From the IMG/VR virus record IMGVR_UViG_3300046777_002716, positions 1-64,000 of that record: 64,000 nucleotides of DNA. One strand, given 5' to 3'. The DNA comes from a virus. The position numbers and the translations under genes are program-made. The notes under the pieces are model-generated. The model searched no databases and was not told the DNA's origin. It saw only the letters and a list, made by a program, of their open reading frames with translations. Below are positions 1 to 12,710 of this stretch, piece after piece. Position 1 is the first letter of the stretch. Each line of letters opens with the position of its first letter.

Positions 1-622
1 CATAAACTTTTTTACCATTAATTACTTTTTTGTAAAATTGTTCGAAACTCCTGTACTGGTAATGTCTAATTCCAATTAAATTATTAACTCTTTTTCCCGG
101 ATGATTTATGATATCATGATTTCCAATTTCAAGGTATGATCCAGGAAATTTTCTAAAGGCAACTGACGGAAATGAATCTGAATTTTTTTTCTTATAACAC
201 ATAGACTTTATTGGATTTTTATCATCAGTATCATTTTCTGTTGGAATAAAGTCTATAACTTCGGCAACAAATATATCACCATCAGATTCTTTTAAAACCT
301 TTCCCAAAGTTTTTCCTTCTATTTTAGAATACCATATCTCATCAGCATCAATGGGAATAATAATATTAGCTCCCATTTTGTAACAGCGTGAGATCCACTC
401 ATTCATTTTATCTGGTTGATAATATGCAAATTCATTATCATCAAACACCGTTATATTATCATATTTCTCAGATAATTCAATAAGTTTTTCTCTAGTTCCA
501 TCTGACGATAAATTATTAGATACAAAGATATGATCAATATCCTGTGTTTCCAAGTACTCTATATTATATCCAATGATGTCAATCTCATCCTTGACCATCA
601 TTACCGCAAACACTTTATTCAT
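1..622 (-). CDS. Glycosyltransferase family 2-like protein (3' end runs off the window)
   Basis: Not in the ORF track. ATG at 622 overlaps the TGA of the upstream ORF and reads MNKVFAVMMVKDEIDIIGYNIEY...SNNLSSDGT...IPIDADEIW (GT-A fold with a DxD motif). Confidence 0.75.
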   Translation of the reverse strand, partial: MNKVFAVMMVKDEIDIIGYNIEYLETQDIDHIFVSNNLSSDGTREKLIELSEKYDNITVFDDNEFAYYQPDKMNEWISRCYKMGANIIIPIDADEIWYSKIEGKTLGKVLKESDGDIFVAEVIDFIPTENDTDDKNPIKSMCYKKKNSDSFPSVAFRKFPGSYLEIGNHDIINHPGKRVNNLIGIRHYQYRSFEQFYKKVINGKKVY

Positions 623-1275
623 ACGTTATTAATGGGATCGTAAACATGTCTTCCATCACCAATATGACTTACAGTCTTATTCTTTAAAGATACTGTATAG
701 TACTCCTTTTTATTGTATAATAATCCAACATCTTTTTCTGATTTACCAACTACTGGTTTTATTTCCTCATATGCAGAAAATTTAAACAAATTTGGATTGT
801 AAGTAAATCCAGGCCACCCATTATATCCAGGAATTAGTATACTAAATTCAGATTCCGTACCTTCCTCATAAACTTCATCTTCGGTTGGATGAGGACTATC
901 CTTCCTAAAAGTAACCTGAATGATATTATCATATTTTTCTAGAATAGGAATACTTCTAGAAATAAATTCACCATCATCAAAATACCAATCATCCTCACAA
1001 TGAAAAACATACTTCGTCTTAACGTAAGAGTATGCTTTATCAATGCTTGCAGGTTGACCTAGTTTTTCTTGATTATAAAGAACTGTCCAATTCTTAAGAT
1101 ACCCATTTTCATTTTCTTCTTTTAATTGTGAGTACCATTCTTGATCAGTTGAGTCATCAATTAAAATTTTTGTCGGAATTTTATCAAGGGTTTCTTTAGG
1201 TATAGACAAGATAGTTTTTTTTAAAAGATCTGGACGATTACAACTCGTCAAAACCATAGTTACGTCAGTATACAT
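619..1275 (-). CDS. Glycosyltransferase family 2
   Basis: LTSCNRPDLL, LIDDS and FHCEDDW motifs of the GT-A fold. Confidence 0.75.
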   Translation of the reverse strand: MYTDVTMVLTSCNRPDLLKKTILSIPKETLDKIPTKILIDDSTDQEWYSQLKEENENGYLKNWTVLYNQEKLGQPASIDKAYSYVKTKYVFHCEDDWYFDDGEFISRSIPILEKYDNIIQVTFRKDSPHPTEDEVYEEGTESEFSILIPGYNGWPGFTYNPNLFKFSAYEEIKPVVGKSEKDVGLLYNKKEYYTVSLKNKTVSHIGDGRHVYDPINNV

Positions 1276-1294
1276 AACATCTCTCCAATTTTAT

Positions 1295-1906
1295 TTACAG
1301 ATTTATTTTATGAACGTGAGTATAATCAACATATTCTTCACAGATATCAGAGTATCCAGGTTTTTGCCATGCTAAATGTGGGTTAACAACATATGCATTA
1401 ATAGATGATTGAATATTAGCATATACAACATCTAGTGGATCCTTTGTTATTGATAAAATATTAATCAATGGATCAAACATGTTATTACGAATTGCATAAC
1501 AATGTGCTGAATATGAATAATTTAATTTATAAATTCTTTCATTTATTTTATTTGGTTTTTGTATATGATTAGCACCCAGAAAGATCATATTCCAATTATC
1601 AGGAACTAATTTCATACACTCATCAAATTGATTAGAAAAATCATCACAAAATTCCACATCATCTTCTAAAATCATGACAGAAGAAAGATTAGATTCTTTT
1701 GCCATTTTAATGACACTAAGTTGAGATATTAAACATCCAATTTGACCTGGAAGTAATGGAGGAACTTGATCTACGATTTTTCCATCAACTGCAGAAAATC
1801 TTTCCGCAATAATATTATGTTTTACAAATTCCTGCTGACAATCACTCCAACGATCGGTTCTTTTATCTAAATTAATACAGTAAATTTTATCAAAATAATT
1901 ATTCAT
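1295..1906 (-). CDS. Glycosyltransferase family 25
   Basis: IYCINLDKRTDRW, RFSAVDG, IGCLISQ and ILEDDV motifs. Confidence 0.85.
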   Translation of the reverse strand: MNNYFDKIYCINLDKRTDRWSDCQQEFVKHNIIAERFSAVDGKIVDQVPPLLPGQIGCLISQLSVIKMAKESNLSSVMILEDDVEFCDDFSNQFDECMKLVPDNWNMIFLGANHIQKPNKINERIYKLNYSYSAHCYAIRNNMFDPLINILSITKDPLDVVYANIQSSINAYVVNPHLAWQKPGYSDICEEYVDYTHVHKINL

Positions 1907-2534
1907 TTGGTGATGTCAGTAAGTGTGATTTAATATACAATGCATCTCCCCAGGTTCCACCAGACCAATCAGTTTCAACTCTAATTATATCATATTTTTG
2001 TAAGTATTCATCGAGATCTTCAATTAAAGCATTATTTTCATAAACTTCATCACGATTAACTTCACAATAAACATAATCAATATATTTTAATGTATTTTCT
2101 CCACCCTTCAAAACTTCTAGTTCATAACCTTGAACATCCATGTTGATAAAATTACAGTTAGTAATCTCAAATTGATCTAATTTTTTGACTTCAACTTCTT
2201 CCGTTAATGGAAAACTAACATCTGGATGTTGTGTTAAATGTACTTTAGGTTTAAGAATAGAACTACTTTGTTTTTGATTACTACTAACATACATTGTAGC
2301 AAATCCTGGATTAGATCCAAGAGCCACTTGATATCCTTGTATATTTGCATTTAAATGTTTTACATTCTCTTCCAAAATACTAAAATTTTCACAAAGAGGC
2401 TCAAACAATACAATATCATTGATATTATTATTGACATATTCTGGTATTTCTTCCCCGTAGTGTGCTCCAATATGAATAATTCCTTTAATATTCATATTAT
2501 ATTTTTTAACCATTTCTGAAAAACTAATTAACAT
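1899..2534 (-). CDS. FkbM family SAM-dependent methyltransferase
   Basis: IHIGAHYG, FEP and INMDVQGYELEVLKG motifs; likely start MLISF at 2534. Confidence 0.85.
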   Translation of the reverse strand: MLISFSEMVKKYNMNIKGIIHIGAHYGEEIPEYVNNNINDIVLFEPLCENFSILEENVKHLNANIQGYQVALGSNPGFATMYVSSNQKQSSSILKPKVHLTQHPDVSFPLTEEVEVKKLDQFEITNCNFINMDVQGYELEVLKGGENTLKYIDYVYCEVNRDEVYENNALIEDLDEYLQKYDIIRVETDWSGGTWGDALYIKSHLLTSPNE

Positions 2535-3325
2535 TGTACCCACTCCTTACAATAAAGATCATCTGTATTATGCGTTAATGGTGGACCAAACCATTTTTTT
2601 GGTGCTACTACTTTTTTACTATTAGATAACCATGCTCCCCACCAACTAAATGAACTATTACAGATGATGTGATTATTACATTTAGATTGAAGATATAAAT
2701 CAACGGCAGTATTGTTTTCTTCAGACATGGTGAATCTATTTGATTCAAAAATTTTCTGACTTTTACACCATTCAATATCATCAGAAAATACAATTACTGG
2801 AATATCATTATCAAAGTGACTCAATGCTAACTTATAATAATTAATATCCTGTACTGGGTGATGCGAATAATTTAGATAATCTCCTCTTCTAACATGTAAC
2901 GATAAAATATCAGAATCACCAAACTCAGATTCTAATAACTCATCACAAGGATTTGATATTTCTTCGATGAAAGTAAAATCATTTTTTAATTCTTCCTTGA
3001 TATGATTGAAATATTTTTCAGTTTGAAAATATCCGAAAAGATCTACATTATCTGGACAATTATTCCAGATATTCTCATCAAAATTAAAAGATGATTCTTC
3101 AATCATTATATTGTCGGTGATTTTTCTTTCCACTTCTGGTAATTTAAAGCACTGAAAAATATTAAAATCAGATCTGGCACAATTTGGATCCCTAGTTCCA
3201 ACAAAAGAACTTGGTGGTAGACAATATTCATAATTAAATTTTGATGCTATTCCCCGCAAAGAAGCATATTGGAACATTTGATTTCCAAGTCTACCAAGAT
3301 TGCCAATAGAGTTGTTAGATATCAT
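2528..3325 (-). CDS. Alpha-1,2-fucosyltransferase (GT11)
   Basis: GRLGNQMFQYA, SLHVRRGDY and NSSFSWWGAWL motifs. Confidence 0.9.
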   Translation of the reverse strand: MISNNSIGNLGRLGNQMFQYASLRGIASKFNYEYCLPPSSFVGTRDPNCARSDFNIFQCFKLPEVERKITDNIMIEESSFNFDENIWNNCPDNVDLFGYFQTEKYFNHIKEELKNDFTFIEEISNPCDELLESEFGDSDILSLHVRRGDYLNYSHHPVQDINYYKLALSHFDNDIPVIVFSDDIEWCKSQKIFESNRFTMSEENNTAVDLYLQSKCNNHIICNSSFSWWGAWLSNSKKVVAPKKWFGPPLTHNTDDLYCKEWVQC

Positions 3326-3408: not shown

Positions 3409-3424
3409 AAAATATTTTAAATAG

Positions 3425-3565
3425 ATAATTTTTTTACTGGAAATTATAAACCAGGCGGAGAAAGAATTCCCCATCCGCACCACCAATCCTTGAGAGAGAT
3501 TGGAAACTCATAAGAGGGTCATATTTGACTCCACCAGGGCAAGTTTTAAGTCATTCCTGGACTAA
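3425..3565 (-). ncRNA. Multi-pseudoknot structured RNA resembling the cyanophage manA/wcaG RNA motifs
   Basis: Minus strand AGTCCAGGAATGACT...CCCTGGTGGAGTC...GAGTTTCCAATCTCTCTCAAGGATTGGTGGTGCGGATGGG...CCGCCTGGTTTATAATTTCCAGTAAAAAAATTAT contains three H-type pseudoknot-compatible modules. The family assignment is from memory. Confidence 0.6.
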
Positions 3566-4360: not shown

Positions 4361-4432
4361 TCGGGGTGGAGAGGATCGAACTCCCGTCTTCATCTTCCCA
4401 AAAGATGCCGTCTACCGCTGACTTACACCCCG
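4361..4432 (-). tRNA. tRNA-Pro(TGG)
   Basis: Cloverleaf; CATCT-TTTGGGA-AGATG; GTTCGATCC. Confidence 0.9.
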
Positions 4433-4550
4433 TTGTGCCGTTATTTAGTTCGGTGTACAATCATTATACCTATAACAGGAACGATTGTCAAGAGGTAACA
4501 AAGGATAAACAAAAACACATTATTATTTAACAAAGTTGCTATAAAATGAC

Positions 4551-4742
4551 TCATTTGTTTAAAAATTTAAAAAATTCTTCATTGATTACTTTATCAAGTT
4601 CAGTCAATTGATATCTAGTAAAATCCCAATTATCTAAAATTAACTTATCAATAAATCTATAAACTTCTGTTGATATTTTAATTTTCTGCCTATAAAAAGA
4701 ACTAAGTATGAATTGTCTTTTTTGCCAAACCTCATCTTTCAT
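4551..4742 (-). CDS. Hypothetical protein
   Basis: 63-aa ORF, ATGA-coupled to the upstream small ORF. Confidence 0.55.
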   Translation of the reverse strand: MKDEVWQKRQFILSSFYRQKIKISTEVYRFIDKLILDNWDFTRYQLTELDKVINEEFFKFLNK

Positions 4743-4888
4743 TTTTCGTCACCAAGATACTTTGCTAAGGGATCTTTTTTAGTTTTTACTATTTCAACCG
4801 CTCTCTTATAGAACATGTTTTCGGTGTTACCAGAAGATTCGAAGGTTTCCTTGATCTTCACCCAATTGTTATAGGTGTGCTGATCCAT
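4739..4888 (-). CDS. Small hypothetical protein (49 aa, MDQHTYNNWVKIKETFESSGNTENMFYKRA...)
   Basis: Below the track cut-off; open frame whose stop overlaps the next ATG. Confidence 0.7.
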   Translation of the reverse strand: MDQHTYNNWVKIKETFESSGNTENMFYKRAVEIVKTKKDPLAKYLGDEK

Positions 4889-4914
4889 AAGATTATAAGT
4901 TGAATACTACTAGT

Positions 4915-4958
4915 TATACTAGTAGATAGTTTGATATTGTCATGTTTGTGTTGATACA
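4915..4958 (-). promoter_or_regulatory. Candidate NtcA-activated promoter
   Basis: TGTA-TCAACACA-AACA, then 22 nt, then TAGTAT (GTA-N8-TAC-N22-TAN3T with one mismatch). Confidence 0.4.
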
Positions 4959-5001
4959 AAAATATAGATTAAAAAAATCTAAAATTTTGTAGTATTTGTA
5001 A

Positions 5002-5083
5002 CGGAGAATAATAGAATCGAACTATCAGGTGTTACCCTGGCATCGTTTTCAAGACGATTTACCGACCATCGGTGCTATTCTCC
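5002..5083 (-). tRNA. tRNA-Ser(TGA)
   Basis: ATCGT-CTTGAAA-ACGAT, long variable arm, G73. Confidence 0.85.
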
Positions 5084-5122
5084 ATATTTTGAATATCCCA
5101 AATGTTTTGCGTAGTGACAATA

Positions 5123-5380
5123 TCAGCGGACTTCAAAATCTAATCTTCTTACTTTACGTTGACGCCTTGCTTCTTGAAATGCAAGATCTTCGTTTGTAAG
5201 TAATCCAGATTTTATTTTATTATTTAGAGAGTTTAGCATGACTATCTGTGATAAGTCAACTGCAGAGATCTTATTACCCCTAATAGTTGCCATATTTGGG
5301 CATCCACATGAAACTGTTTTCGTATGATGCCCTTCTATCTCCCTGTTACAGGATCTGCATCTAATTCTTATATTTTCCAT
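5123..5380 (-). CDS. Small Cys-rich (Zn-binding) hypothetical protein
   Basis: CRSC...SCGCPN motif. Confidence 0.7.
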   Translation of the reverse strand: MENIRIRCRSCNREIEGHHTKTVSCGCPNMATIRGNKISAVDLSQIVMLNSLNNKIKSGLLTNEDLAFQEARRQRKVRRLDFEVR

Positions 5381-5399
5381 TTTTAATTATAAAATTTAT

Positions 5400-5837
5400 T
5401 TATTTTTCAGTGAAAGATCTTAAAAACCAAACAAACTTACCGTGTGCCTCGTTTAAATCATCAAGTAGATTTGTAGTTCCTCTTGAATTAAGTTCTTCTG
5501 CAACTTTTGCTGCTTCACTAAACATATCTATAAGAGTTTTATGGTCATCAAGTAGGTCTTTAATCATTTCCATCTCAGATAGACCACTCTTTGCTTCTGA
5601 AACCCTTGATACTTCAGAAACCCTTGAAAGAGCACTAACTGGTTTTGCACCAAGAAAACGAATATGCTCCGAAATTCTATCAACTTCTTCAAAGAGAGCA
5701 TTATACTGCTCACCAAATAAAGTATGAATTTGATAAAAATCAGGTCCACTAATGTGCCAATGATATACCCAAGTTTTTTGAAAAAGAACAAAAAGACTTG
5801 CCTGAGTATCAGATAAAATCTTATATAGTTTTTCCAT
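5400..5837 (-). CDS. dps: Dps/ferritin-like protein
   Basis: HWHISGPDFYQIHTLFGEQY...VDRISEHIRFLG ferroxidase signature; late promoter TATAAATA at 5858-5865. Confidence 0.9.
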   Translation of the reverse strand: MEKLYKILSDTQASLFVLFQKTWVYHWHISGPDFYQIHTLFGEQYNALFEEVDRISEHIRFLGAKPVSALSRVSEVSRVSEAKSGLSEMEMIKDLLDDHKTLIDMFSEAAKVAEELNSRGTTNLLDDLNEAHGKFVWFLRSFTEK

Positions 5838-5868
5838 TATACCAATTAATTTTTAGGTATTTATAATA

Positions 5869-5940
5869 TGGGTGATGACGGGATTGAACCGCCGGCCGCC
5901 TCAATGTAAACGAGATGCTCTACCGCTGAGCTAATCACCC
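5869..5940 (-). tRNA. tRNA-Val(TAC)
   Basis: GGGTGAT acceptor; TCTCG-TTTACAT-TGAGG. Confidence 0.9.
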
Positions 5941-5947
5941 AAAAAAG

Positions 5948-6112
5948 TCATGATTGACTTAGCATATACTCTACAGTATTAGCAATGTCATTCATAGCAG
6001 CACGAAGATCTTTTTGACCTCCAGATTCTTGCTTAATAATTGGTCGTGAAGAATCAGTAAGAGTCCAACGCCATTCATCAGCATGTTCAGAGTACCATAA
6101 TTTAATGTTCAT
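5948..6112 (-). CDS. Small hypothetical protein (54 aa, MNIKLWYSEHADEWRWTL...)
   Basis: Open frame below the track cut-off, overlapping the upstream ORF. Confidence 0.6.
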   Translation of the reverse strand: MNIKLWYSEHADEWRWTLTDSSRPIIKQESGGQKDLRAAMNDIANTVEYMLSQS

Positions 6113-6260
6113 TTTTCTGATACTCCAGTTTAACCCAATTTAAAAGCGCATTATAAGAATAAATTGCCGCTTCATTGCACTTATTCTTTTCCATATCATA
6201 GATATAGAACTCAAGTGCTTCAATGACCATTTGTCGGTCTTTTTGTGAAATAAGAGACAT
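6102..6260 (-). CDS. Small hypothetical protein (52 aa, MSLISQKDRQMVIEALEFY...)
   Basis: Open frame below the track cut-off. Confidence 0.6.
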   Translation of the reverse strand: MSLISQKDRQMVIEALEFYIYDMEKNKCNEAAIYSYNALLNWVKLEYQKNEH

Positions 6261-6294
6261 TGCTGAAAGGGGAGGTTTCCCTCCCCAAGTTACA

Positions 6295-7179
6295 TCAGAA
6301 CTTGAAACCTAGACCAGTGGTGAATACTGGAGAGTATGCACCGTTGGTAGCACCGTAACTGTTAGCAGCATTGGTGGTAGGGAACTTCAGGTCAGCGAAA
6401 CCAACCAGAGAGTTGGTGATACGACCTTCCAGACCCACGGCGAGAACAACTTGACCCTTCTCACCCACAGCGGATTGGAAGTTAGCAGCGGTGTTGTTCA
6501 CGAAAGGAACTTGATAACCCACACCAGCGTACAGGTTTGCCTTGCTCACACCAGAAGCAGCACGGGCGAGACTCCAATCATAAGAAACTAGAGCACCACC
6601 AGCGGCACCGATTTGACCAGCAGGAGTACCAACGAAGTTAGCATAAGGACGGACGGCAACAGCATTTTGGTTGCTGAAGGTACGCACTGCATAACGACCT
6701 TGGATAGTACCACCAGACACGGTACGGTTCTCGGTGTAACCATTACCATCAACACCCTGCTTGTTCAGGAGAACACCAGCACCCAGGTAGTTACCTACGC
6801 CTTGTGCTTTCTGAGCAGAGGCAACTTCCAGAGCACTCACACGGGCGTTGGTGGCACCCAGTTCACGGGAGAACTCAGCACGGAGAGCAGCAGCGGTTTG
6901 GGCATCAGCAGCGGTGTAGAACTCGGTGATGCGGTCCAGGCAAGCATTAGTCAGGGCAGCGAGTTCAGCACGAGTAGCGGGTTGACCAGACTGGAAAGTA
7001 CCATTGGGATAACCAGCAACACAACCATAACGGGCAACAAGATTAGAGATCGCCTGATAGGACCACTCAGTAGGTTGCACATCACGCAGTTGAGAAACGC
7101 TAGTGACTTGTGCCATAGCAGGAGCAGCGATAGAAGTCGCGGCAACTACACCAGCAGTAATAATATTTTGAAAATTCAT
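6295..7179 (-). CDS. SLH-domain outer-membrane protein with a cyanobacterial Som/porin-like N-terminus
   Basis: Signal peptide (AMA|Q); QVTSVSQLRDVQPTEWSYQAISNLVARYGCVAGYPNGTF is the Som-type SLH start; amphipathic beta strands; terminal Phe. Confidence 0.8.
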   Translation of the reverse strand: MNFQNIITAGVVAATSIAAPAMAQVTSVSQLRDVQPTEWSYQAISNLVARYGCVAGYPNGTFQSGQPATRAELAALTNACLDRITEFYTAADAQTAAALRAEFSRELGATNARVSALEVASAQKAQGVGNYLGAGVLLNKQGVDGNGYTENRTVSGGTIQGRYAVRTFSNQNAVAVRPYANFVGTPAGQIGAAGGALVSYDWSLARAASGVSKANLYAGVGYQVPFVNNTAANFQSAVGEKGQVVLAVGLEGRITNSLVGFADLKFPTTNAANSYGATNGAYSPVFTTGLGFKF

Positions 7180-7235
7180 ATTGTATTAATAATTACAACT
7201 ACGAGGTTTATTTAGACGCCCTGAGTATTAGGGCA

Positions 7236-7307
7236 AGCGGCATATCGGATTCGAACCGATGACATTCAGCTTGGAAGGCTGACGTTCTACCACTGAACTA
7301 ATGCCGC
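7236..7307 (-). tRNA. tRNA-Gly(TCC)
   Basis: TCAGC-CTTCCAA-GCTGA. Confidence 0.92.
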
Positions 7308-7310
7308 AAA

Positions 7311-7356
7311 TGGTGGGGAGAAATAAATCTCCCAGCACACTTCTTTCACACGGAAG
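7311..7356 (-). ncRNA. Small RNA with its own sigma70 promoter (GUGUGA 5' motif, ends ...CCACCA)
   Basis: TTGACA (7382-7387)-17-TATAAT (7359-7364), then CCGTGTGAAAGAAGTG and a GGGAGA/TCTCCC hairpin. Confidence 0.45.
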
Positions 7357-7386
7357 GGATTATAAGACAAACTTTAAAGTTTGTCA

Positions 7387-7460
7387 AGCCCCAGACAAGA
7401 CTTGAACTTGCGACCTGAGCTTTACAAAAGCCCTGCTCTATCCAACTGAGCTACTGAGGC
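7387..7460 (-). tRNA. tRNA-Thr(TGT)
   Basis: GGGCT-TTTGTAA-AGCTC. Confidence 0.92.
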
Positions 7461-7464
7461 AAAG

Positions 7465-7559
7465 GTGCCATGAGTGTCCACGGCACACCAGACACTTGGT
7501 TGTTTCGGATATGATGGTCCCGAAACTTATGATAGAATCGGAAATTTCCAACCCTATCA
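7465..7559 (-). ncRNA. Structured spacer RNA (two hairpins plus an H-type pseudoknot)
   Basis: TGATAGGGTTGGAA/TTCCGATTCTATCA; GTTTCGG/CCGAAAC; AGTGTC/GACACT crossed by GTGCCGTG/CATGGCAC. Confidence 0.5.
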
Positions 7560-7560
7560 A

Positions 7561-7633
7561 CTGGGGCGGCAGGGATCGAACCTGCGACCTAGATGTTAAC
7601 AGCATCCCGCTACTACCGCTGAGCTACACCCCA
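7561..7633 (-). tRNA. tRNA-Asn(GTT)
   Basis: GGATG-CTGTTAA-CATCT. Confidence 0.92.
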
Positions 7634-7675
7634 ATGTTTATTTTATAAATAAGATTAGCAGTTCGTGTTAATCTT

Positions 7676-8020
7676 ATGAAATGTGCTTGGCATCTATGTT
7701 TAGAAGAAGCAGTACTTTACAATGGCAGAGGCAAGTTTTGCTCCAAACAATGTAAAAACAAGTATCATGTAGACCAGAGAAGAAAGAAACTCAAGCAAGA
7801 CAGTATAGCATATAAAGGAGGTGCTTGTCAATGTTGTGGTTATAATCGTTCTCACTGGGCATTAGAGTTTCACCATTTAGACCCTAAAGAAAAAGATTTT
7901 CATTTATCTAAAGGTGGTCATACTAGAAGTTGGGAAAAAATCAAAGAAGAATTGGATAAATGTATTCTAGTATGTTCTAACTGCCATTCCGAAATTCATC
8001 ACGGAATTCGTGAATTATAA
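7676..8020 (+). CDS. Free-standing HNH homing endonuclease
   Basis: FCSKQC Zn knuckle; CQCCG...LEFHHLDP...CILVCSNCHSEIH; late promoter TATAAATA at 7644-7651. Confidence 0.85.
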   Translation: MKCAWHLCLEEAVLYNGRGKFCSKQCKNKYHVDQRRKKLKQDSIAYKGGACQCCGYNRSHWALEFHHLDPKEKDFHLSKGGHTRSWEKIKEELDKCILVCSNCHSEIHHGIREL

Positions 8021-8030
8021 TGGAATGTAA

Positions 8031-8073
8031 GGGAAAGGAGTGCTCTTGGGCGAACCCGCAGGATCACTTTCCC
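8031..8073 (-). ncRNA. Hairpin spacer RNA with a UUCG tetraloop
   Basis: GGGAAAG...GGG-TTCG-CCC...CTTTCCC. Confidence 0.4.
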
Positions 8074-8075
8074 GA

Positions 8076-8148
8076 TGGAGAATAGGAGACTCGAACTCCT
8101 GACCTTCGCCTTGCAAAGGCGCTGCTCTACCAACTGAGCTAATTCCCC
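8076..8148 (-). tRNA. tRNA-Ala(TGC)
   Basis: GGGGAAT acceptor with G3-U70; GCGCC-TTTGCAA-GGCGA. Confidence 0.93.
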
Positions 8149-8149
8149 T

Positions 8150-8225
8150 TGGGAGCGAGAGGGTGGAATTGAACCACCTACCTGAGGCTTATGAGACCTC
8201 CGTGCAACCGTTACACCTCTCCGCA
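8150..8225 (-). tRNA. tRNA-Met(CAT), initiator-like, with a bulged acceptor stem
   Basis: GAGGT-CTCATAA-GCCTC; mismatched first pair; one extra nt in the 3' acceptor strand. Confidence 0.75.
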
Positions 8226-8269
8226 ATGCGTTTATGACAATCATAAGGTATATATACCAGATTGTCAAG

Positions 8270-8343
8270 TGCCCGTGATAGGAGTCGAACCTACACTGTA
8301 TGGATTCTAAGTCCACCCTCTCTGCCAGTTGGAGTACACGGGC
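8270..8343 (-). tRNA. tRNA-Leu(TAG), short variable loop
   Basis: GTGGA-CTTAGAA-TCCAT. Confidence 0.88.
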
Positions 8344-8344
8344 A

Positions 8345-8402
8345 AGATGGATTAAGTGTGATATACCTCATAAGGATATAACAGGGACCTAACCTCTATC
8401 TC
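8345..8402 (-). ncRNA. Promoter-proximal hairpin RNA
   Basis: TTGACA-17-TACTAT promoter upstream; GGTTAGGT/ACTTAATC and ATAT(CC)T/AGG-TATAT nested stems. Confidence 0.4.
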
Positions 8403-8437
8403 TTTATATAGTAACAAATTCTAAAGAATTTGTCAAG

Positions 8438-8511
8438 CGTCCTCTGCAGGATTTGAACCTGCGACTTCTTCGTTCGTAGCGAAGCACTCTGTTCCACTGA
8501 GTTAAGAGGAC
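8438..8511 (-). tRNA. tRNA-Arg(ACG)
   Basis: CTTCG-CTACGAA-CGAAG. Confidence 0.92.
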
Positions 8512-8516
8512 AAAGG

Positions 8517-8589
8517 CACCCTCGGTAGGATTCGAACCTACGACTAATCGCTTAGAAGGCGAATACTCTAGCCACTGAGTTACGAGGGC
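8517..8589 (-). tRNA. tRNA-Arg(TCT)
   Basis: TTCGC-CTTCTAA-GCGAT. Confidence 0.9.
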
Positions 8590-8593
8590 ATTT

Positions 8594-8667
8594 TGGCGAA
8601 GGATGAGGGATTTGAACCCCCACTAACAGTTTTGGAGACTGTCGTGCTACCATTACACTAATCCAAC
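8594..8667 (-). tRNA. tRNA-Trp(CCA)
   Basis: ACAGT-CTCCAAA-ACTGT; encoded CCA; two U-U mismatches in the acceptor. Confidence 0.85.
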
Positions 8668-8689
8668 ATAAGTTCCTCAAGATGAGGAA

Positions 8690-8777
8690 TACCAGCCGAG
8701 GGTATCGAACCCTCCCAAAGGCCCTAATCTGGGGCAAATCGCTTATAAGGCGACTCTGAACACCTGTTCTGACTGGC
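8690..8777 (-). tRNA. Atypical tRNA with a TAT (Ile) anticodon, long variable arm and reduced D arm
   Basis: GTCGC-CTTATAA-GCGAT; GCCC-CAGATTA-GGGC extra arm; GAAC-AGGT-GTTC D arm. Confidence 0.75.
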
Positions 8778-8800
8778 GATTATTTACTCATAAAGAGCAA

Positions 8801-8879
8801 TACTCCACCTCAGACTTGAACTGAGAATCCGAAGAAGTAGATTTTGAGTCTACCGCGTTTACCATTTCGCCAGTGGAGC
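8801..8879 (-). tRNA. tRNA-Leu(CAA)
   Basis: GTAGA-CTCAAAA-TCTAC. Confidence 0.9.
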
Positions 8880-8906
8880 GTAATTATACAAACTTTAAGT
8901 TTGCAA

Positions 8907-8979
8907 TACCCGTGGTCGGATTCGAACCGACACTGTAGAGATTTTAAGTCTCCTGTCTCTGCCGTTGGACTACACGGGC
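8907..8979 (-). tRNA. tRNA-Leu(TAA), short variable loop
   Basis: GGAGA-CTTAAAA-TCTCT. Confidence 0.88.
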
Positions 8980-8983
8980 ATAG

Positions 8984-9056
8984 TGCTCGATGAGGGGATC
9001 GAACCCACCTATATCCGATTATGAGTCGGGTGCTTTCACCAGATAGCTAATCGAGC
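8984..9056 (-). tRNA. tRNA with a CAT anticodon (probably Ile2, lysidine type)
   Basis: CCCGA-CTCATAA-TCGGA resembles the bacterial Ile2 anticodon arm. Confidence 0.8.
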
Positions 9057-9065
9057 AGTGTTAGG

Positions 9066-9158
9066 TTTTCAAGGTTCGAAGTGGTCTCTCAACCACCCTC
9101 TTAGAATAACACCAAACCCAGTCTGGGTCAAGTGGGTTGTGCCAGTTTGGGAACTGGC
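9066..9158 (-). promoter_or_regulatory. tRNA-operon promoter with palindrome, boxB-like hairpin and rrn boxA
   Basis: GCCAGTTCCCAAACTGGCAC; TTGACC-17-TATTCT; GTGGT-TGAGAG-ACCAC; GAACCTTGAAAA. Confidence 0.7.
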
Positions 9159-9160
9159 GA

Positions 9161-9234
9161 TGTCCGTGAGAGGATTCGAACCTCCAACACCTACCCCCTC
9201 AAGGTAGTGCCTCTTCCAGTTGGGCTACACGGAC
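9161..9234 (-). tRNA. tRNA-Leu(GAG), short variable loop
   Basis: CTACC-TTGAGGG-GGTAG. Confidence 0.85.
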
Positions 9235-9237
9235 GAG

Positions 9238-9309
9238 TTCCAGAACTAGGATTCGAACCTAGACAAACACAGTCAAAGTGTGTTGACCTGCCAGTTAGTC
9301 GATTCTGGA
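9238..9309 (-). tRNA. tRNA-Gln(TTG)
   Basis: ACACA-CTTTGAC-TGTGT; U1-A72. Confidence 0.88.
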
Positions 9310-9328
9310 TTGAAATGGGATTACCCCA

Positions 9329-9664
9329 TTAGTAATATGAAAATGATGCAGAAGTAGCAGTAGCAGTGTCTGTAGCATCATCATCATCTTGATGTTTACG
9401 ATTTTTAAAATACATAAACAAAGGTGATTTTTCGGTTGGAACTAGTACATCAGACCAAAAAGATTCTCCTGACGAACATTGATAAAGAACATCACCCTCA
9501 TAAGGAATCATAGCAACAGCATTGCAAGAATTGTCTTTAATGTAATTATATTCTTTATAATATACTGGACGATTTTTTGCTGCTTGCATAGCAAACACTG
9601 GTTCACTGATTCCAAAAATAATCAAAAACAGAAAAAATAATTTAATGATAAATTTCATAATCAA
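9329..9664 (-). CDS. Hypothetical secreted protein inside the tRNA array
   Basis: N-terminal signal peptide (..EPVFA|M); two Cys; acidic/Thr-Ala tail. Confidence 0.6.
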   Translation of the reverse strand: MIMKFIIKLFFLFLIIFGISEPVFAMQAAKNRPVYYKEYNYIKDNSCNAVAMIPYEGDVLYQCSSGESFWSDVLVPTEKSPLFMYFKNRKHQDDDDATDTATATSASFSYY

Positions 9665-9697
9665 TTGTAGTTTGTTTATTATCTCAAAAGAGATAAG

Positions 9698-9773
9698 AGT
9701 TCAGGGTGGGATTTGAACCCACGGTGAAAGAAGTTTTGCAGACTTCCGCATTCGACCACTCTGCCACCTGAAC
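9698..9773 (-). tRNA. tRNA-Cys(GCA)
   Basis: GAAGT-CTGCAAA-ACTTC; U73. Confidence 0.9.
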
Positions 9774-9776
9774 ATA

Positions 9777-9849
9777 TGGGTCTGGTGGGGTTTGAACCCA
9801 CAACTTTTCGGTTAAGAGCCGACTACTCTACCAATTGAGTTACAGACCC
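9777..9849 (-). tRNA. tRNA-Lys(CTT)
   Basis: GTCGG-CTCTTAA-CCGAA. Confidence 0.9.
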
Positions 9850-9852
9850 AAG

Positions 9853-9924
9853 AGCCCTTAGTGAGAATCAAACTCACGACCTCATTCTTACCAAGAATGC
9901 GTTCTATCACTGAACTATAAGGGC
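9853..9924 (-). tRNA. tRNA-Thr(GGT)
   Basis: CATTC-TTGGTAA-GAATG; A19/U56 variant. Confidence 0.85.
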
Positions 9925-9926
9925 GG

Positions 9927-9998
9927 GGTGCCATACGAGATTTGAACTCGTCTACCCAGTTTCACAAACTGGTTCCTTAACCACTAGGATAATGGCAC
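9927..9998 (-). tRNA. tRNA-His(GTG)
   Basis: CCAGT-TTGTGAA-ACTGG; C73; no genomic G-1. Confidence 0.85.
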
Positions 9999-9999
9999 A

Positions 10000-10073
10000 T
10001 GGCAGTAGATGGATTTGAACCACCGACCATAGGAATATGAGACCCGTGCTCTACCAAACTGAGCTATACTGCC
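10000..10073 (-). tRNA. tRNA-Met(CAT), elongator-like
   Basis: GGCAGTA acceptor; CTCATAT loop on a weak anticodon stem. Confidence 0.8.
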
Positions 10074-10076
10074 AAA

Positions 10077-10161
10077 CGGAGAGTAGAGGATTCGAACCTC
10101 TGGTGCTGTTACACACAAGACCTTTCCAAGATCTCACCATAAACCACTCGGACAACTCTCC
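10077..10161 (-). tRNA. tRNA-Ser(GGA)
   Basis: AGATC-TTGGAAA-GGTCT; long variable arm. Confidence 0.9.
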
Positions 10162-10165
10162 AAGG

Positions 10166-10254
10166 CGGAAGTGGTTGGATTCGAACCAACGGTGCCGATT
10201 ACTCGACACGGAATCTTAGCAGGATTCTGCGATAAGCCTCTCTGCCACACTTCC
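10166..10254 (-). tRNA. tRNA-Ser(GCT)
   Basis: GAATC-CTGCTAA-GATTC; long variable arm. Confidence 0.9.
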
Positions 10255-10257
10255 AAG

Positions 10258-10350
10258 TTGATAAGGGCACCTGTCCGAATTTAAAGTGCGCTTGGGTCGT
10301 TTAATCCACCGCCGTCACACTAATGTTTGGTGGCGATGGACCCTTATCAA
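10258..10350 (-). ncRNA. Three-way-junction spacer RNA
   Basis: 10-bp closing stem TTGATAAGGG/CCCTTATCAA; TCCATCGCC/GGCGGTGGA; GCACTT/AGGTGC. Confidence 0.6.
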
Positions 10351-10364
10351 ATCCCCGAAGGGAA

Positions 10365-10436
10365 TTGGAACGGTGAGATTTGAACTCACGACTTCTGCGT
10401 TATCAGCACAGCACTCTACCACTGAGTTACATTCCA
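10365..10436 (-). tRNA. tRNA-Ile(GAT)
   Basis: CTGTG-CTGATAA-CGCAG. Confidence 0.9.
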
Positions 10437-10440
10437 TCGA

Positions 10441-10554
10441 AGTAAGAGACACTAGTATCATCTTACCTGTTTCAGTTTTCGGACTGAAAAACCTATCACT
10501 AACCAACCTAAGTTTCATAACGGAGGAAGTGAATCTCCGTGACCATAAAGGTCA
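10441..10554 (-). ncRNA. Multi-hairpin spacer RNA
   Basis: TGACC/GGTCA; ACGGAG/CTCCGT; TTTCAGT/ACTGAAA; GTAAGA/TCTTAC. Confidence 0.45.
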
Positions 10555-10556
10555 AG

Positions 10557-10630
10557 TGGGAACACACAGAATTGAACTGTGACCTCATGTTCTTCAGACA
10601 TACGTGCCGACCAACCTACACCATGTTCCC
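10557..10630 (-). tRNA. tRNA-Phe(GAA)
   Basis: TATGT-CTGAAGA-ACATG. Confidence 0.85.
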
Positions 10631-10635
10631 AAAGT

Positions 10636-10713
10636 TTGGAAATTCAGGAATCGAACCTGTCGGGCAGTAAGGGCGATCAACTCCCCACTTTCCTGTGTTC
10701 CACACATTTCCAA
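10636..10713 (-). ncRNA. tRNA-like RNA (acceptor and T arm, no canonical D or anticodon arm)
   Basis: TTGGAAAT/ATTTCCAA; CAGG-TTCGATT-CCTG; TGTG-GAA-CACA; AGTGGGG/CCTTACT. Confidence 0.6.
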
Positions 10714-10714
10714 G

Positions 10715-10788
10715 TCGGAATGACAGGATTCGAACCTGCGACATCTCGCTCCCAAAGCGAGTGCTCTACCAAACTGAGCTACATTCCG
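10715..10788 (-). tRNA. tRNA-Pro(TGG)
   Basis: CTCGC-TTTGGGA-GCGAG. Confidence 0.93.
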
Positions 10789-10865
10789 TGGTCTGAGAGG
10801 CAGGATTTGAACCTGCGACCTGAGCGTTCCAAACACCCAGCTCTACCAAACTGAGCTACTCCCAG
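10789..10865 (-). tRNA. tRNA-Pro(TGG), third copy, with encoded CCA
   Basis: GGGTG-TTTGGAA-CGCTC; A37 instead of G37. Confidence 0.85.
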
Positions 10866-10868
10866 AGG

Positions 10869-10940
10869 TATTCCTAACGGGATTCGAACCCGTGCTACAA
10901 CCTTGAAAGGGTTGTGACCTAACCGCTAGTCGATAGGAAC
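10869..10940 (-). tRNA. tRNA-Glu(TTC)
   Basis: CAACC-CTTTCAA-GGTTG. Confidence 0.92.
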
Positions 10941-10942
10941 TT

Positions 10943-11118
10943 GAGAGAGGGGTATCCCACACGAAGTTACTTACGGATCACGCTTCGTAGCCTTATGGAT
11001 CCTGCCAGGGTCAATCTGGTGCCTAGGAATCCCTCTCCAATTCCAGTTATCGCTACGTCATTTCTTACCTAACTGGCAACCTTCAGAATGACGTGGAGAT
11101 TCGTACTGATGATCTCCA
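10943..11118 (-). ncRNA. Large double-pseudoknot spacer RNA(s)
   Basis: ACGTCATT/AATGACGT crossed by CCAGTTA/TAACTGG; GGAGAGGG...CCCCTCTC enclosing GGATC/GATCC crossed by ACGAAG/CTTCGT. Confidence 0.6.
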
Positions 11119-11119
11119 A

Positions 11120-11192
11120 CGACCCTATGGGAATTCGAATCCCAGATTCCTACTAGACAGGTAGGCGTGATAGACCACTTCACTATAGGGCC
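11120..11192 (-). tRNA. tRNA-Asp(GTC)
   Basis: CCTAC-CTGTCTA-GTAGG. Confidence 0.88.
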
Positions 11193-11195
11193 ATG

Positions 11196-11268
11196 TTCAC
11201 CCGAGCAGGATTCGAACCTGCATCTCTTTCCATGGAAAGACGACATACCATTAGCCGCATCGGATGAA
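11196..11268 (-). ncRNA. tRNA-like RNA without a 7-nt anticodon loop
   Basis: TTCATCCGA/TCGGGTGAA acceptor; CGGC/GTCG D arm; palindromic TCTTTCCATGGAAAGA; perfect T arm GCAGG-TTCGAAT-CCTGC. Confidence 0.7.
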
Positions 11269-11270
11269 GG

Positions 11271-11361
11271 TGGGAGAGGAGGGAATCGAACCCCCGATGG
11301 TTCTTATGTAACGGTTTTACAGACCGCCGCCACACATATTGCCGACAGTAGCCACTCTCCC
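11271..11361 (-). tRNA. tRNA-Tyr(GTA) with an enlarged D loop
   Basis: GCGGT-CTGTAAA-ACCGT; long variable region. Confidence 0.85.
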
Positions 11362-11399
11362 AAATAGTTTATATTTAACGACCGAACTAAAACGGTCAA

Positions 11400-11471
11400 T
11401 GGGTCTGGTGGGATTTGAACCCACAACTTCCAGGTTAAAAGCCCGTTACTCTACCGTTGAGTTACAGACCC
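11400..11471 (-). tRNA. tRNA-Lys(TTT)
   Basis: ACGGG-CTTTTAA-CCTGG; body nearly identical to tRNA-Lys(CTT). Confidence 0.9.
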
Positions 11472-11485
11472 ATAAAAGGTTTAGA

Positions 11486-11668
11486 TTGTCAAGGTGCGAT
11501 TGTCACTGGAAGATAATGTTTTATCCAGAGGCCCAAGATAAATCTTAGGACTTAGACTGATGCTAGAAGCAGAGCAGTGACTTGTGGTGGTCTCTCAACC
11601 ACCCTTTAAGAATACCACTCTGTCCGTTAGGGGTCAAGTGGGTTGTGACACTTAGAGAACTGTCACAA
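11486..11668 (-). promoter_or_regulatory. Main tRNA-operon early promoter with palindrome, boxB-like hairpin, structured insert and boxA
   Basis: TTGTGACAGTT..AAGTGTCACAA; TTGACC-17-TATTCT; GTGGT-TGAGAG-ACCAC; GCACCTTGACAA. Confidence 0.7.
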
Positions 11669-11673
11669 GCAAC

Positions 11674-11708
11674 AAAAAAGGGGAGGAAACTTTTGGTTTC
11701 TCTCCCCT
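11674..11708 (-). terminator. Attenuator terminator upstream of the tRNA array
   Basis: AGGGGAG-A-GAAAC-CAAAA-GTTTC-CTCCCCT-TTTTT; its 5' arm is also complementary to CTCCCCTGT in the leader ORF. Confidence 0.85.
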
Positions 11709-11732
11709 GTCTTTTTGCTTTTATGGCAGTTA

Positions 11733-11834
11733 CTACATCTGACCTACCATACTCGCAAACAGGGGAGCACCCTCAATATGCCAATAGCGGCAATCGAGAA
11801 TACTAAACTGTTTTGTGGGCATTGGGTAAGACAT
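11733..11834 (-). CDS. Putative attenuator leader peptide MSYPMPTKQFSILDCRYWHIEGAPLFASMVGQM (33 aa)
   Basis: Late promoter TATAAATA at 11856-11863, AGGT SD-like site, ATG at 11834, tandem TAG TAA; overlaps the antiterminator. Confidence 0.75.
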   Translation of the reverse strand: MSYPMPTKQFSILDCRYWHIEGAPLFASMVGQM

Positions 11835-11887
11835 TGTTTTCGACCTAAGTGTTATTATTTATAATACTTTTATTTTTAAAAGTCAAG

Positions 11888-11962
11888 CGTCTCAGGTTGG
11901 ATTCGAACCAACGACTCACGCTTTAGAAGAGCGTTACTCTAATTCCACTGAGTTACTGAGAC
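11888..11962 (-). tRNA. tRNA-Arg(TCT), second copy
   Basis: ACGCT-CTTCTAA-AGCGT. Confidence 0.9.
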
Positions 11963-11967
11963 AAGAG

Positions 11968-12042
11968 ACCTCCTGGTTTGTGCATCGTTGAGAGGCATAG
12001 GAGGGGAAGGACTTATGCGAAGTTTGGACCTCCGCCGCCTAT
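11968..12042 (-). ncRNA. Promoter-proximal structured RNA
   Basis: TTGACA (12072-12077)-17-TATAAT (12049-12054); GCGGAG/CTTCGC and CCTCCT/AGGAGG stems. Confidence 0.4.
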
Positions 12043-12073
12043 GAGGATATTATAGGGTATCAGGAGCGGCGTG

Positions 12074-12265
12074 TCAACCCTTTGCTTCCTTACGGGCGTT
12101 ACGCTCCTCAGTAATCTCGCCTCTACGTGCCTTGACGAGTTTGGCAACTTCCTGAAGTGCCTTACGGGCACGGGTGCCTGCTGCGTTGTTTCCACCAGCA
12201 AACTTTTCGTCTTCTACTTTCCAAGCTTCAACAGCATCAAGTAGTTGTTGTGATGTTTCAGACAT
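12074..12265 (-). CDS. Histone H1-like (Hc1-type) small basic protein
   Basis: EKFAGGNNAAGTRARKALQEVAKLVKARR motif; GGAG SD before MSETS. Confidence 0.65.
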   Translation of the reverse strand: MSETSQQLLDAVEAWKVEDEKFAGGNNAAGTRARKALQEVAKLVKARRGEITEERNARKEAKG

Positions 12266-12302
12266 AATAATCTCCAATAAAAATAAGATATGTGTATATA
12301 TG

Positions 12303-12710
12303 CTAGTTTTTAGGGCAGTTTTCTATCCAGGGGGCACATAACCTCATTTCACCACCCAAAGATTTACATTCTTCAGTATAGCAAACAGAAGAATCTACTG
12401 GTTTCTCGGAGAATATTGGAGCAGGAACTTCTGCTGGTTTTTCGCCAGTCTGTCTCCAATAATCCTCAATTGCTCTATCAACATCCCTCTTGATTCTCCT
12501 ATCCAGTTTTTCTGGGTCTTTGATTATAAAATCGTTGAGAATAGTTTGAGGAAAATGTCTTCTTTGGATTTCATCAAATAAGTCCCAAATCTTATTTTCA
12601 GAAATACCCGTGCATTGAGAGAGTGCCGCAATAATAGAAGATAATACTATACCAATTATTACGTACTGCTTTATATCTGGTTTCTTGTTGCCAAAATTAA
12701 ATTTGAACAT
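12303..12710 (-). CDS. Hypothetical membrane-anchored protein
   Basis: N-terminal TM helix; C-terminal Cys cluster. Confidence 0.65.
   Translation of the reverse strand: MFKFNFGNKKPDIKQYVIIGIVLSSIIAALSQCTGISENKIWDLFDEIQRRHFPQTILNDFIIKDPEKLDRRIKRDVDRAIEDYWRQTGEKPAEVPAPIFSEKPVDSSVCYTEECKSLGGEMRLCAPWIENCPKN

Follow-up and report, generated by a model that had tools for sequence, protein, structure and literature searches.

A double-pseudoknot RNA family seated between tRNA genes in T4-like cyanophages

Results

The DNA analysed here (the window) is a stretch of 64,000 nucleotides (nt) from IMG/VR virus record IMGVR_UViG_3300046777_002716, and our subject is an element of 178 nt that runs from 11118 to 10941 on its minus strand, flush between tRNA-Asp(GUC) upstream (11119-11193) and tRNA-Glu(UUC) downstream (10867-10940), both called on the same strand by ARAGORN and Rfam. 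A preliminary description of the sequence had proposed a double-pseudoknot RNA at 10943-11118; its upper boundary holds, and its lower one falls two bases short of 10941. Comparison with relatives in other phages confirms, as far as sequence can, a real, conserved and folded RNA with two pseudoknots, and on the same comparative footing it is an uncatalogued structured-RNA family, in no Rfam 15 entry.

With RNA position i defined as 11119 minus the window coordinate, the parts can be followed from the 5' end. One to two nt past the discriminator of tRNA-Asp, the hairpin P0 (11095-11117) pairs GGAGAU with AUCUCC (i 2-7 with 19-24) across an 11-nt loop. It is followed by an H-type pseudoknot of two crossing stems (knot 1, 11043-11094): stem 1, of 8+2 base pairs (bp), joins ACGUCAUU(CU) to (AG)A-AAUGACGU (11085-11094 with 11055-11065; i 25-34 with 54-64), and its 19-nt loop supplies the CCAGUUA that pairs with UAACUGG downstream to form stem 2 (11070-11076 with 11043-11049; i 43-49 with 70-76). 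The linker AAUUG (11038-11042) then leads to the rod that closes domain 2. The 5' strand of the rod (11024-11037) consists of P3 GAGAGGG (11031-11037), AU and P4 UCCUA (11024-11028), and its 3' strand (10945-10959) of P4 UGGGA (10955-10959), UAC and P3 CCCUCUC (10945-10951), which places P3 at i 82-88 with 168-174 and P4 at i 91-95 with 160-164. Within the rod lie a small hairpin, CCAG-AUUGACC-CUGG (11005-11019; i 100-103 with 111-114), and a second H-type pseudoknot (knot 2, 10961-11002), whose stem 1, GGAUC/GAUCC (10998-11002 with 10975-10979; i 117-121 with 140-144), is crossed by ACGAAG/CUUCGU (10983-10988 with 10961-10966; i 131-136 with 153-158). An unpaired tail, UCAA (10941-10944), completes the element, its last base being position -1 of tRNA-Glu. 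All the helices named in the preliminary description (P0, both knots, the rod and CCAG/CUGG) are present on the minus strand.

Taken by itself, the single sequence is suggestive and only modestly unusual. Its nested minimum free energy is ordinary (z = -1.3 and -1.6 for the two strands), a value that carries little significance because nested folding leaves the knots outside the model, and two serial H-type knots arise, under loose criteria, in 2.9% of 2000 dinucleotide shuffles. No credible open reading frame (ORF) covers the element; small mechanical ORFs overlap it but run into the tRNAs. A further complementarity, which may represent an alternative pairing, connects UGCCAG (11073-11078, i 41-46), which overlaps the 5' strand of the knot 1 crossing stem, with CUGGCA (11003-11008, i 111-116) on the 3' side of the small hairpin; 5 bp of it are kept in every relative with the window's type of tip (type A, below), and none in types B or C. 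AUUCCUA of domain 2 can also be paired with the 3' acceptor strand of tRNA-Glu in the window, but not in S-CREM1, and we took this as coincidence.

Relatives were collected by exact-pattern scans of IMG/VR, JGI metagenomes and 185,579 species genomes with four search motifs (the knot-1/rod junction, knot 1, the rod and the type A tip); recognisable chance matches in coding DNA were set aside. About 55 true loci, comprising 35 distinct sequences, were recovered, all of them within tRNA arrays of phages and on the same strand as the tRNAs, and the carriers are T4-like cyanophages from freshwater or estuaries. Among 50,697 phage records searched by BLASTN, the Synechococcus phage S-CREM1 is the sole isolate to carry it, at about OP535465.1:44156-44330, in a 175-nt gap between tRNA-Asp and tRNA-Glu. 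None of the 185,579 species genomes contains the 20-nt junction motif in a bacterium, bar one chance match in a metagenome-assembled genome of Fibrobacteria.

Family members are 120-190 nt long and share one order of parts: P0 (variable in sequence), knot 1, the AAUUG linker, the rod, the tip, the 3' strand of the rod, an unpaired tail and the next tRNA. The linker is conserved, yet it lies inside two search patterns, and the only loci recovered without relying on it are L090 (AAUUGA) and L100 (AAAAAG). The rod comprises 14-15 layers, namely a 7-bp G-rich P3, an imperfect step (A opposite C, a U-A pair and a bulged U) and a P4 of 5-6 bp. Three types of tip occur among the distinct sequences. 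Type A, that of the window, combines a hairpin with knot 2 (19 distinct sequences plus L100); type B, that of S-CREM1, is a different H-type knot (8 sequences); and type C is a hairpin only, with a UUUUAAA loop (9 sequences). The parts recombine, as judged from the differing combinations of knot-1 subtype and tip: L013, for example, joins an L008-type knot 1 to a type A tip. The type C loop is nearly self-complementary (L009:1162-1226, L031:1325-1387, L039:392-460), and loop-loop dimerisation is conceivable. Within type A the small hairpin is CCAUC/GAUGG in most sequences and CCAGA/UCUGG in L003, its three basal pairs being invariant.

The tail at the 3' boundary is conserved. Among the 35 distinct sequences the tail reads A(U/C)CA(A/U) in 21 (AUCA in 18; ACCA in 3, these reading ACCAU) and AUCU in 10, and a 7-bp G-rich stem followed by an unpaired A is found in 33. 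The two exceptions are the window, where the leading A is lost (UCAA), and a broken copy, L041 (CAU). The latter (L041:12644-12805, minus strand) combines the 5' strand of P3 found in the L033 variant (GGAAAGAC) with a canonical 3' strand, which breaks the rod, and has a mismatch in stem 1 as well; it has probably arisen by recombination or is decaying. L100 differs at the other end of the element: its type A domain 2 is preceded by unrelated sequence that keeps the knot 1 topology. There the hairpin CCUACCC/GGGUAGG is crossed by a different helix, of 12 bp, between its loop, CUGGUAGAUUUU, and AAAAUUUACCUG just before the rod. A scan for relatives of this knot returned L100 alone.

Comparison with the relatives also bears on the two knots, which had been suggested to be copies of one module with AAGG(U/C)U before, and GUAAG after, the crossing strand. 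Both motifs are indeed found in both knots of the window, but knot 1 of the relatives mostly has AGAGGUU or AGAGUUU, and UGCAG or UGUAG, in their place; with the motifs not kept, a repeated module is not supported.

We consider the fold to be under selection because compensatory changes occur in at least four helices, with 94-99% of cells paired across 20-33 sequences. P0 varies in a compensatory manner, from GGAGAU in the window to GGGAG/CUCCC, GAGAG/CUCUC and GGGA/UCCC in relatives, which also include a long GCUAC...GUAGC form. Stem 1 of knot 1 has at least six versions of unrelated sequence (e.g., ACGUCAUUC, ACGCAUUCUUC, CAUCAUC, UCCUUCAC, CCUUCA and UCCCC), each complementary to its own 3' partner, and the mean duplex energy is -11.7 kcal/mol for cognate strands versus -7.6 for non-cognate ones. 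In a model-guided alignment of 33 sequences, 6 of the 11 pairs of this stem show changes on both sides, and the covariation score is 0.213, against 0.114 for shuffled data (0 of 500 shuffles reach 0.213) and at most 0.074 with the partners slid. Covariance-model realignment (models R1 and R2) failed to bring all stem-1 subtypes into one register, so the score understates the pairing, and the per-sequence comparison of duplexes is the cleaner measure; a register-clean subset is 100% paired, with two double compensations.

Changes of this kind are seen in the rod as well. In the 20 type A sequences, 98.8% of P3 and P4 cells are paired, and four pairs have changed on both sides: 7-98 (G-C, A-U or G-U), 10-95 and 11-94 (G-C to A-U) and 14-91 (U-A to C-G). 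In L033 the AU/UAC internal step is replaced by three Watson-Crick pairs. P3 also occurs as GGAGAAUAA/UUAUUCUCU and GAGGGGG/CCCCCUC, and variant forms are seen in L039, L053 and L060. Stem 1 of knot 2 varies at a single pair in type A, from C-G to U-A (2 versus 18 sequences), while both stems covary in the type B knot at the same position, the crossing stem reading GAGUAG/CUACUY, AAGAUAG/CUAUCUU, GAGUUAG/CUAACUC or GAGAUAG/CUAUCUC. The G-U pairs (U-G in 20 of 20 sequences at 19-86, G-U in 6 at 7-98 and U-G in 9 at 17-88) would become A-C mismatches if the opposite strand were transcribed and therefore identify the RNA as the minus-strand transcript.

In the window's own subtype the helices that cross, CCAGU(UA)/(UA)ACUGG and ACGAAG/CUUCGU, stand apart in being invariant, partly because the search patterns impose it, so that covariation leaves their pairing unproven there. 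They are supported indirectly by the covariation of the type B knot, by the topology of L100 (the sole independent support for stem 2 of knot 1) and by retained complementarity, which is a perfect 6-7 bp in all members. A bulged-A extension of stem 2 was not counted, its pairs being mixed (A-U, G-U and G-C, also G-G and U-U).

Lack of covariation and a match to an existing Rfam family had been named at the outset as grounds for giving up the idea of a new RNA; covariation was found, and no Rfam family matched. Neither at gathering score nor in a cmscan search of 10400-12400 against all 4227 models of Rfam 15 (E ≤ 10, relaxed filters) did any model match the element, in keeping with its earlier designation as a novel structured RNA. 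No ribozyme model was among the matches in that search, which bears out the earlier reading by eye that hammerhead, hepatitis delta virus (HDV)/theta, twister and pistol cores are missing. HDV-like and theta folds were rejected on architecture as well: the knots are serial, independent and of simple H-type rather than nested, and knot 1 has no P3/L3 or P4 of that kind. Hammerhead, twister, twister-sister, pistol, hatchet, hairpin and glmS ribozymes were likewise set aside, with no invariant unpaired core across L100, L033 and tips A, B and C.

Other classes fared no better. For tRNAs and tRNA-like RNAs (tRNA, T4 RNA C, YrlA and transfer-messenger RNA, tmRNA), ARAGORN, RF00005, RF02553 and RF00023 all gave no match on the element, and a derivation of domain 2 from a tmRNA or tRNA was rejected for want of a T-arm or a tag frame. 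Type III toxin-antitoxin RNAs (ToxI, CptI and the abiF motif) were dismissed because 10800-11300 holds no tandem repeat, RF03085 matches elsewhere only, and no toxin-like ORF lies nearby. Riboswitches, including the candidates manA and wcaG, were rejected as well: no riboswitch model matched, tip and loop nucleotides are not conserved, and only tRNAs lie downstream. A similarity to wcaG at the level of building blocks did not hold either, loops and topology being different. We found no terminator-like site on the RNA strand, no ribosome-binding site (RBS) and no downstream ORF on which a switch might act.

The source record, of 101,897 bases and judged 48% complete, derives from a T4-like genome that encodes a gp43 DNA polymerase, a gp41-type helicase, an SbcC-like nuclease, NrdA, the gp23 major head protein and the gp20 portal, and the Synechococcus phages S-CREM1 and S-PM2 have a similar tRNA region. 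ARAGORN places 32 tRNA genes at 4361-11962, all on the minus strand and without encoded CCA. Most other tRNAs of such arrays adjoin with gaps of 0-3 nt. ARAGORN missed three tRNA-like genes, all on the minus strand: one at 11197-11266 with a weak RF00005 match (32 bits), a Tyr-like RNA at 11268-11361 that lies, by synteny, where S-CREM1 and S-PM2 have tRNA-Tyr, and one at 8154-8224 (RF00005, 42 bits). A ferritin-like ORF (5400-5837) and an SLH-domain ORF (6295-7179) sit between tRNA genes inside the array on the minus strand, and a wcaG RNA, a cyanophage motif (RF01761, 71 bits), lies at 3411-3511 (minus strand), upstream of a run of glycosyltransferase/methyltransferase ORFs (619-3325, minus strand).

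The position of the element relative to the downstream tRNA is fixed, while the identity of that tRNA is not. A tRNA was called 3' of the element in 56 of 57 tallied loci (Glu 49, Pro 3, Arg(UCU) 2, Ile(GAU) 1, Leu(CAA) 1) and none in the remaining one; in L100 it is Leu(UAA). Wherever the tail was measured, this tRNA begins 4-5 nt after P3 irrespective of its identity, and the element has moved in one piece to junctions with other tRNAs (Arg, Pro, Ile and Leu). On the upstream side, the neighbour within 160 nt in the same 57 loci is tRNA-Asp in 33, a pseudo-tRNA in 4, and tRNA-Tyr and tRNA-Ile(UAU) in one each. Conserved pseudo-tRNAs with a 2-nt 'anticodon' (tRNA-??? in ARAGORN) lie directly upstream of the element at the usual site of tRNA-Asp (L012:671-742, L056:1209-1279, L090:1761-1832). 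In S-PM2 the spacer between tRNA-Asp and tRNA-Glu measures 56 nt and has two hairpins, keeping of the element only its first hairpin, GGAGAU-UU-AUCUCC.

Other structured RNAs are found in these arrays. Three relatives carry a manA RNA (RF01745, 98-114 bits) flush between two tRNA genes, with the orders Arg/manA/Asn, Gly/manA/Val and Ala/manA/Met (L076:4701-4908, L069:3858-4065, L024:2092-2306). None of these is a 5' untranslated region (UTR) position, which is at odds with the description of manA as a cis-regulatory, 5'-UTR riboswitch candidate (PMC2864571). A permuted, cyanobacterial-type tmRNA (RF01851, 106-113 bits) lies inside the tRNA arrays of further relatives (L010:129-381, L035:665-928, L069:4662-4917, and also L025:855-1149), flush between tRNAs like manA, with ARAGORN tags of ANNIVAFSRSKSTALV and similar; no cyanobacterial-type tmRNA was detected in the window. 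Finally, the window contains an orphan abiF RNA motif (RF03085, 49 bits) at 11968-12004 (minus strand), flush 5' of tRNA-Arg(UCU) (11887-11962), and S-CREM1 likewise carries one. RNAs of this motif are proven antitoxins that neutralise AbiF toxins (PMC12373285). No Abi_2/AbiF ORF was found near the copy in the window, which may, by analogy, be a phage-borne antitoxin decoy.

How is the element expressed? It is preceded on the minus strand by a promoter-like site (11609-11637) and contains no terminator-like site itself, so it would be transcribed on that strand within a multi-tRNA precursor. Short contigs of one RNA-sequencing library lie on 10946-11094; they show neither ends, strand nor level, DNA carry-over being possible, and are a weak sign of expression. 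The RNA libraries X17, X19 and X20 have no contig over the element.

Discussion

Our analyses describe an RNA whose architecture is kept while its sequence is free, and for this reason we disfavour a catalytic or ligand-binding pocket and favour a role for its overall shape. The enzymes that trim the neighbouring tRNAs probably also free the element. In bacterial pre-tRNAs without encoded CCA, the mature 3' end is made by an RNase Z cut after the discriminator. Since tRNA-Asp has no encoded CCA, an endonucleolytic cut of this kind, by RNase Z or another 3' endonuclease, is expected behind it and would create the 5' end of the element, and the RNase P cut at +1 of tRNA-Glu would create its 3' end. 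It is conceivable that RNase P also recognises the rod as a minihelix substrate, which would give two pieces, one of about 80 nt with knot 1 and one of about 100 nt with domain 2. Flanked by knots, the excised molecule would be compact, stable and resistant to exonucleases; of the roles suggested in the preliminary description, that of a nuclease-resistant RNA is retained to this extent, as a compact, stable RNA would be compatible with the data.

We propose, tentatively and with somewhat less than even confidence, that the element is an excised, stable RNA that acts by its shape, possibly as a decoy. It would work in trans through shape rather than through catalysis or the sensing of a ligand, most likely as a protein-binding decoy or sponge. 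One possibility is that it mimics a tRNA acceptor arm and, during infection, keeps occupied a host enzyme directed at tRNA or RNA. If a decoy or regulator of this type is indeed made, tRNA operons would serve as platforms for the expression and processing of phage effector RNAs.

Several observations count against this proposal. Excision and action in trans are both inferred, and no host RNA or defence gene is tied to the element. The likeness to an acceptor arm is loose: an ACCA tail is present in only 3 of the 35 distinct sequences, the window having UCAA, and the rod stacks 14-15 layers, compared with the 12 bp of the acceptor/T-arm stack, and lacks a T-loop. The crossing helices are invariant in the window's subtype, as described above, and one copy, L041, has a broken P3. 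Moreover, S-PM2 indicates that the element is dispensable for expression of tRNA-Asp and tRNA-Glu in a relative.

Might the element instead matter only before it is excised? It could be a cis-acting punctuation mark of the tRNA precursor, a self-folding spacer with no function once released, which would stop the tRNAs from mispairing, present the downstream 5' leader to RNase P on a rigid helix, and/or block exonucleases and RNase E. In 56 of 57 loci, whatever its identity, the tRNA starts behind a short, conserved tail whose last base is A or U; this agrees with the idea, as do the conserved architecture with its free sequence and the P0 hairpin, which is retained behind tRNA-Asp even in the two-hairpin spacer of S-PM2. 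However, most other tRNAs of the arrays abut without such a spacer, 170 nt with two pseudoknots seem elaborate for the purpose, and the element moves as a unit to Arg, Pro, Ile and Leu junctions. We therefore judge this explanation rather unlikely, if far from negligible; were punctuation the whole of its role, the element would define the organisation of a precursor with more than 30 tRNAs.

Returning to an excised RNA that acts by shape, a more specific version, which we offer as speculation and rate as unlikely, invokes defence against the phage. Here the element, conserved in shape and plastic in sequence, would mimic an acceptor arm by its 7-bp G-rich stem and unpaired A(Y)CA end, with the pseudoknots for stability, and titrate a host enzyme that attacks or modifies tRNA ends or other RNAs during abortive infection, and so would be an anti-defence decoy working by way of tRNA processing. 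The swappable tips and the variants of the knots would then be traces of an arms race, and cyanophage tRNA operons, which also hold the orphan abiF RNA, would be general launch pads for RNA counter-defence.

The preliminary description had also named a ribozyme and an aptamer, and neither is sustained by a family that has no invariant unpaired nucleotides, exchanges its tip, and offers no terminator, RBS or ORF. An aptamer, or riboswitch-like sensor, might tune the processing of the downstream tRNAs or read-through into them; pseudoknotted folds of such size are typical of aptamers, and these phages also carry manA and wcaG, both riboswitch candidates, the former even in the same type of slot. 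Such a sensor would nonetheless have to operate without an expression platform and without invariant pocket nucleotides, with knot 1 replaced altogether in L100 and no riboswitch model matching, and we consider it improbable. A new class of self-cleaving ribozyme that cuts the tRNA precursor is, if anything, more improbable still. The setting, directly behind one tRNA and before another, and the pseudoknots would suit it, and theta (HDV-like) ribozymes behind the tRNAs of gut phages are a possible precedent; against it, no Rfam 15 ribozyme model matches, the knots are serial H-types and not nested as a double knot, the family members share no invariant core, and the flanking tRNAs already provide sites for RNase P and RNase Z. 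Least probable of all is a functionless relic or selfish hitch-hiker, that is, a decayed tRNA pair or mobile insert kept by linkage, for although these arrays contain pseudo-tRNAs, L041 has a broken rod and S-PM2 lacks the element, compensatory changes in at least four helices with 94-99% of cells paired and the lack of any trace of a T-loop or cloverleaf speak against decay.

What is the relation of the element to RNAs already described? In the S-CREM1 genome paper the only Rfam motifs listed are abiF, wcaG, manA and glnA, and the gap between tRNA-Asp and tRNA-Glu goes unmentioned (PMC9964418). A survey of structured RNAs in IMG/VR mentions a motif that overlaps a tRNA-Asp call at one site and might be the same RNA (PMC10690425). 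Among the passengers of the same arrays, the orphan abiF RNA resembles the element in being a small structured RNA in the same tRNA operon without a toxin; the element differs in showing no similarity to it, no tandem repeats and no bacterial counterpart of its junction motif. The cyanophage RNA manA, of about 200 nt and with a proposed pseudoknot, occupies in relatives the same type of slot, but its fold and sequence are different, and its model has no match to the element at E ≤ 10.

Unexplained stable RNAs in phage tRNA clusters date back to T4. RNA C and RNA D of T4 (species 1 and 2; rnaC and rnaD in NC_000866) are non-tRNA RNAs of 119-139 nt in the tRNA cluster, on the tRNA strand and flush with tRNA-Arg. 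The element resembles them in its setting: it lies inside a phage tRNA cluster, has the orientation of the tRNAs and is delimited by their processing sites. Unlike T4 RNA C, which has a canonical T-arm, it has no T-arm, and there is no homology: with filters off, the best score of the knot-1 model R1 in the T4 tRNA region is 8.5 bits (E = 0.3). GOLLD and ROOL are phage-borne RNAs with multiple pseudoknots, often near tRNA islands, for which no function or protein partner is known (PMC12286853), structurally spectacular and functionally opaque. At 500-800 nt or more they form homo-oligomeric cages, whereas the element has about 175 nt, and neither has an Rfam match on it.

By analogy, the company of abiF, tmRNA, manA, T4 RNA C and D, and GOLLD and ROOL points to a trans-acting passenger RNA, a role that is directly testable in a cultured representative, S-CREM1 on Synechococcus CB0101. 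With it, the RNAs of phage tRNA clusters gain a compact, strongly covarying family of about 175 nt, and structural work gains a clean new double-pseudoknot fold.

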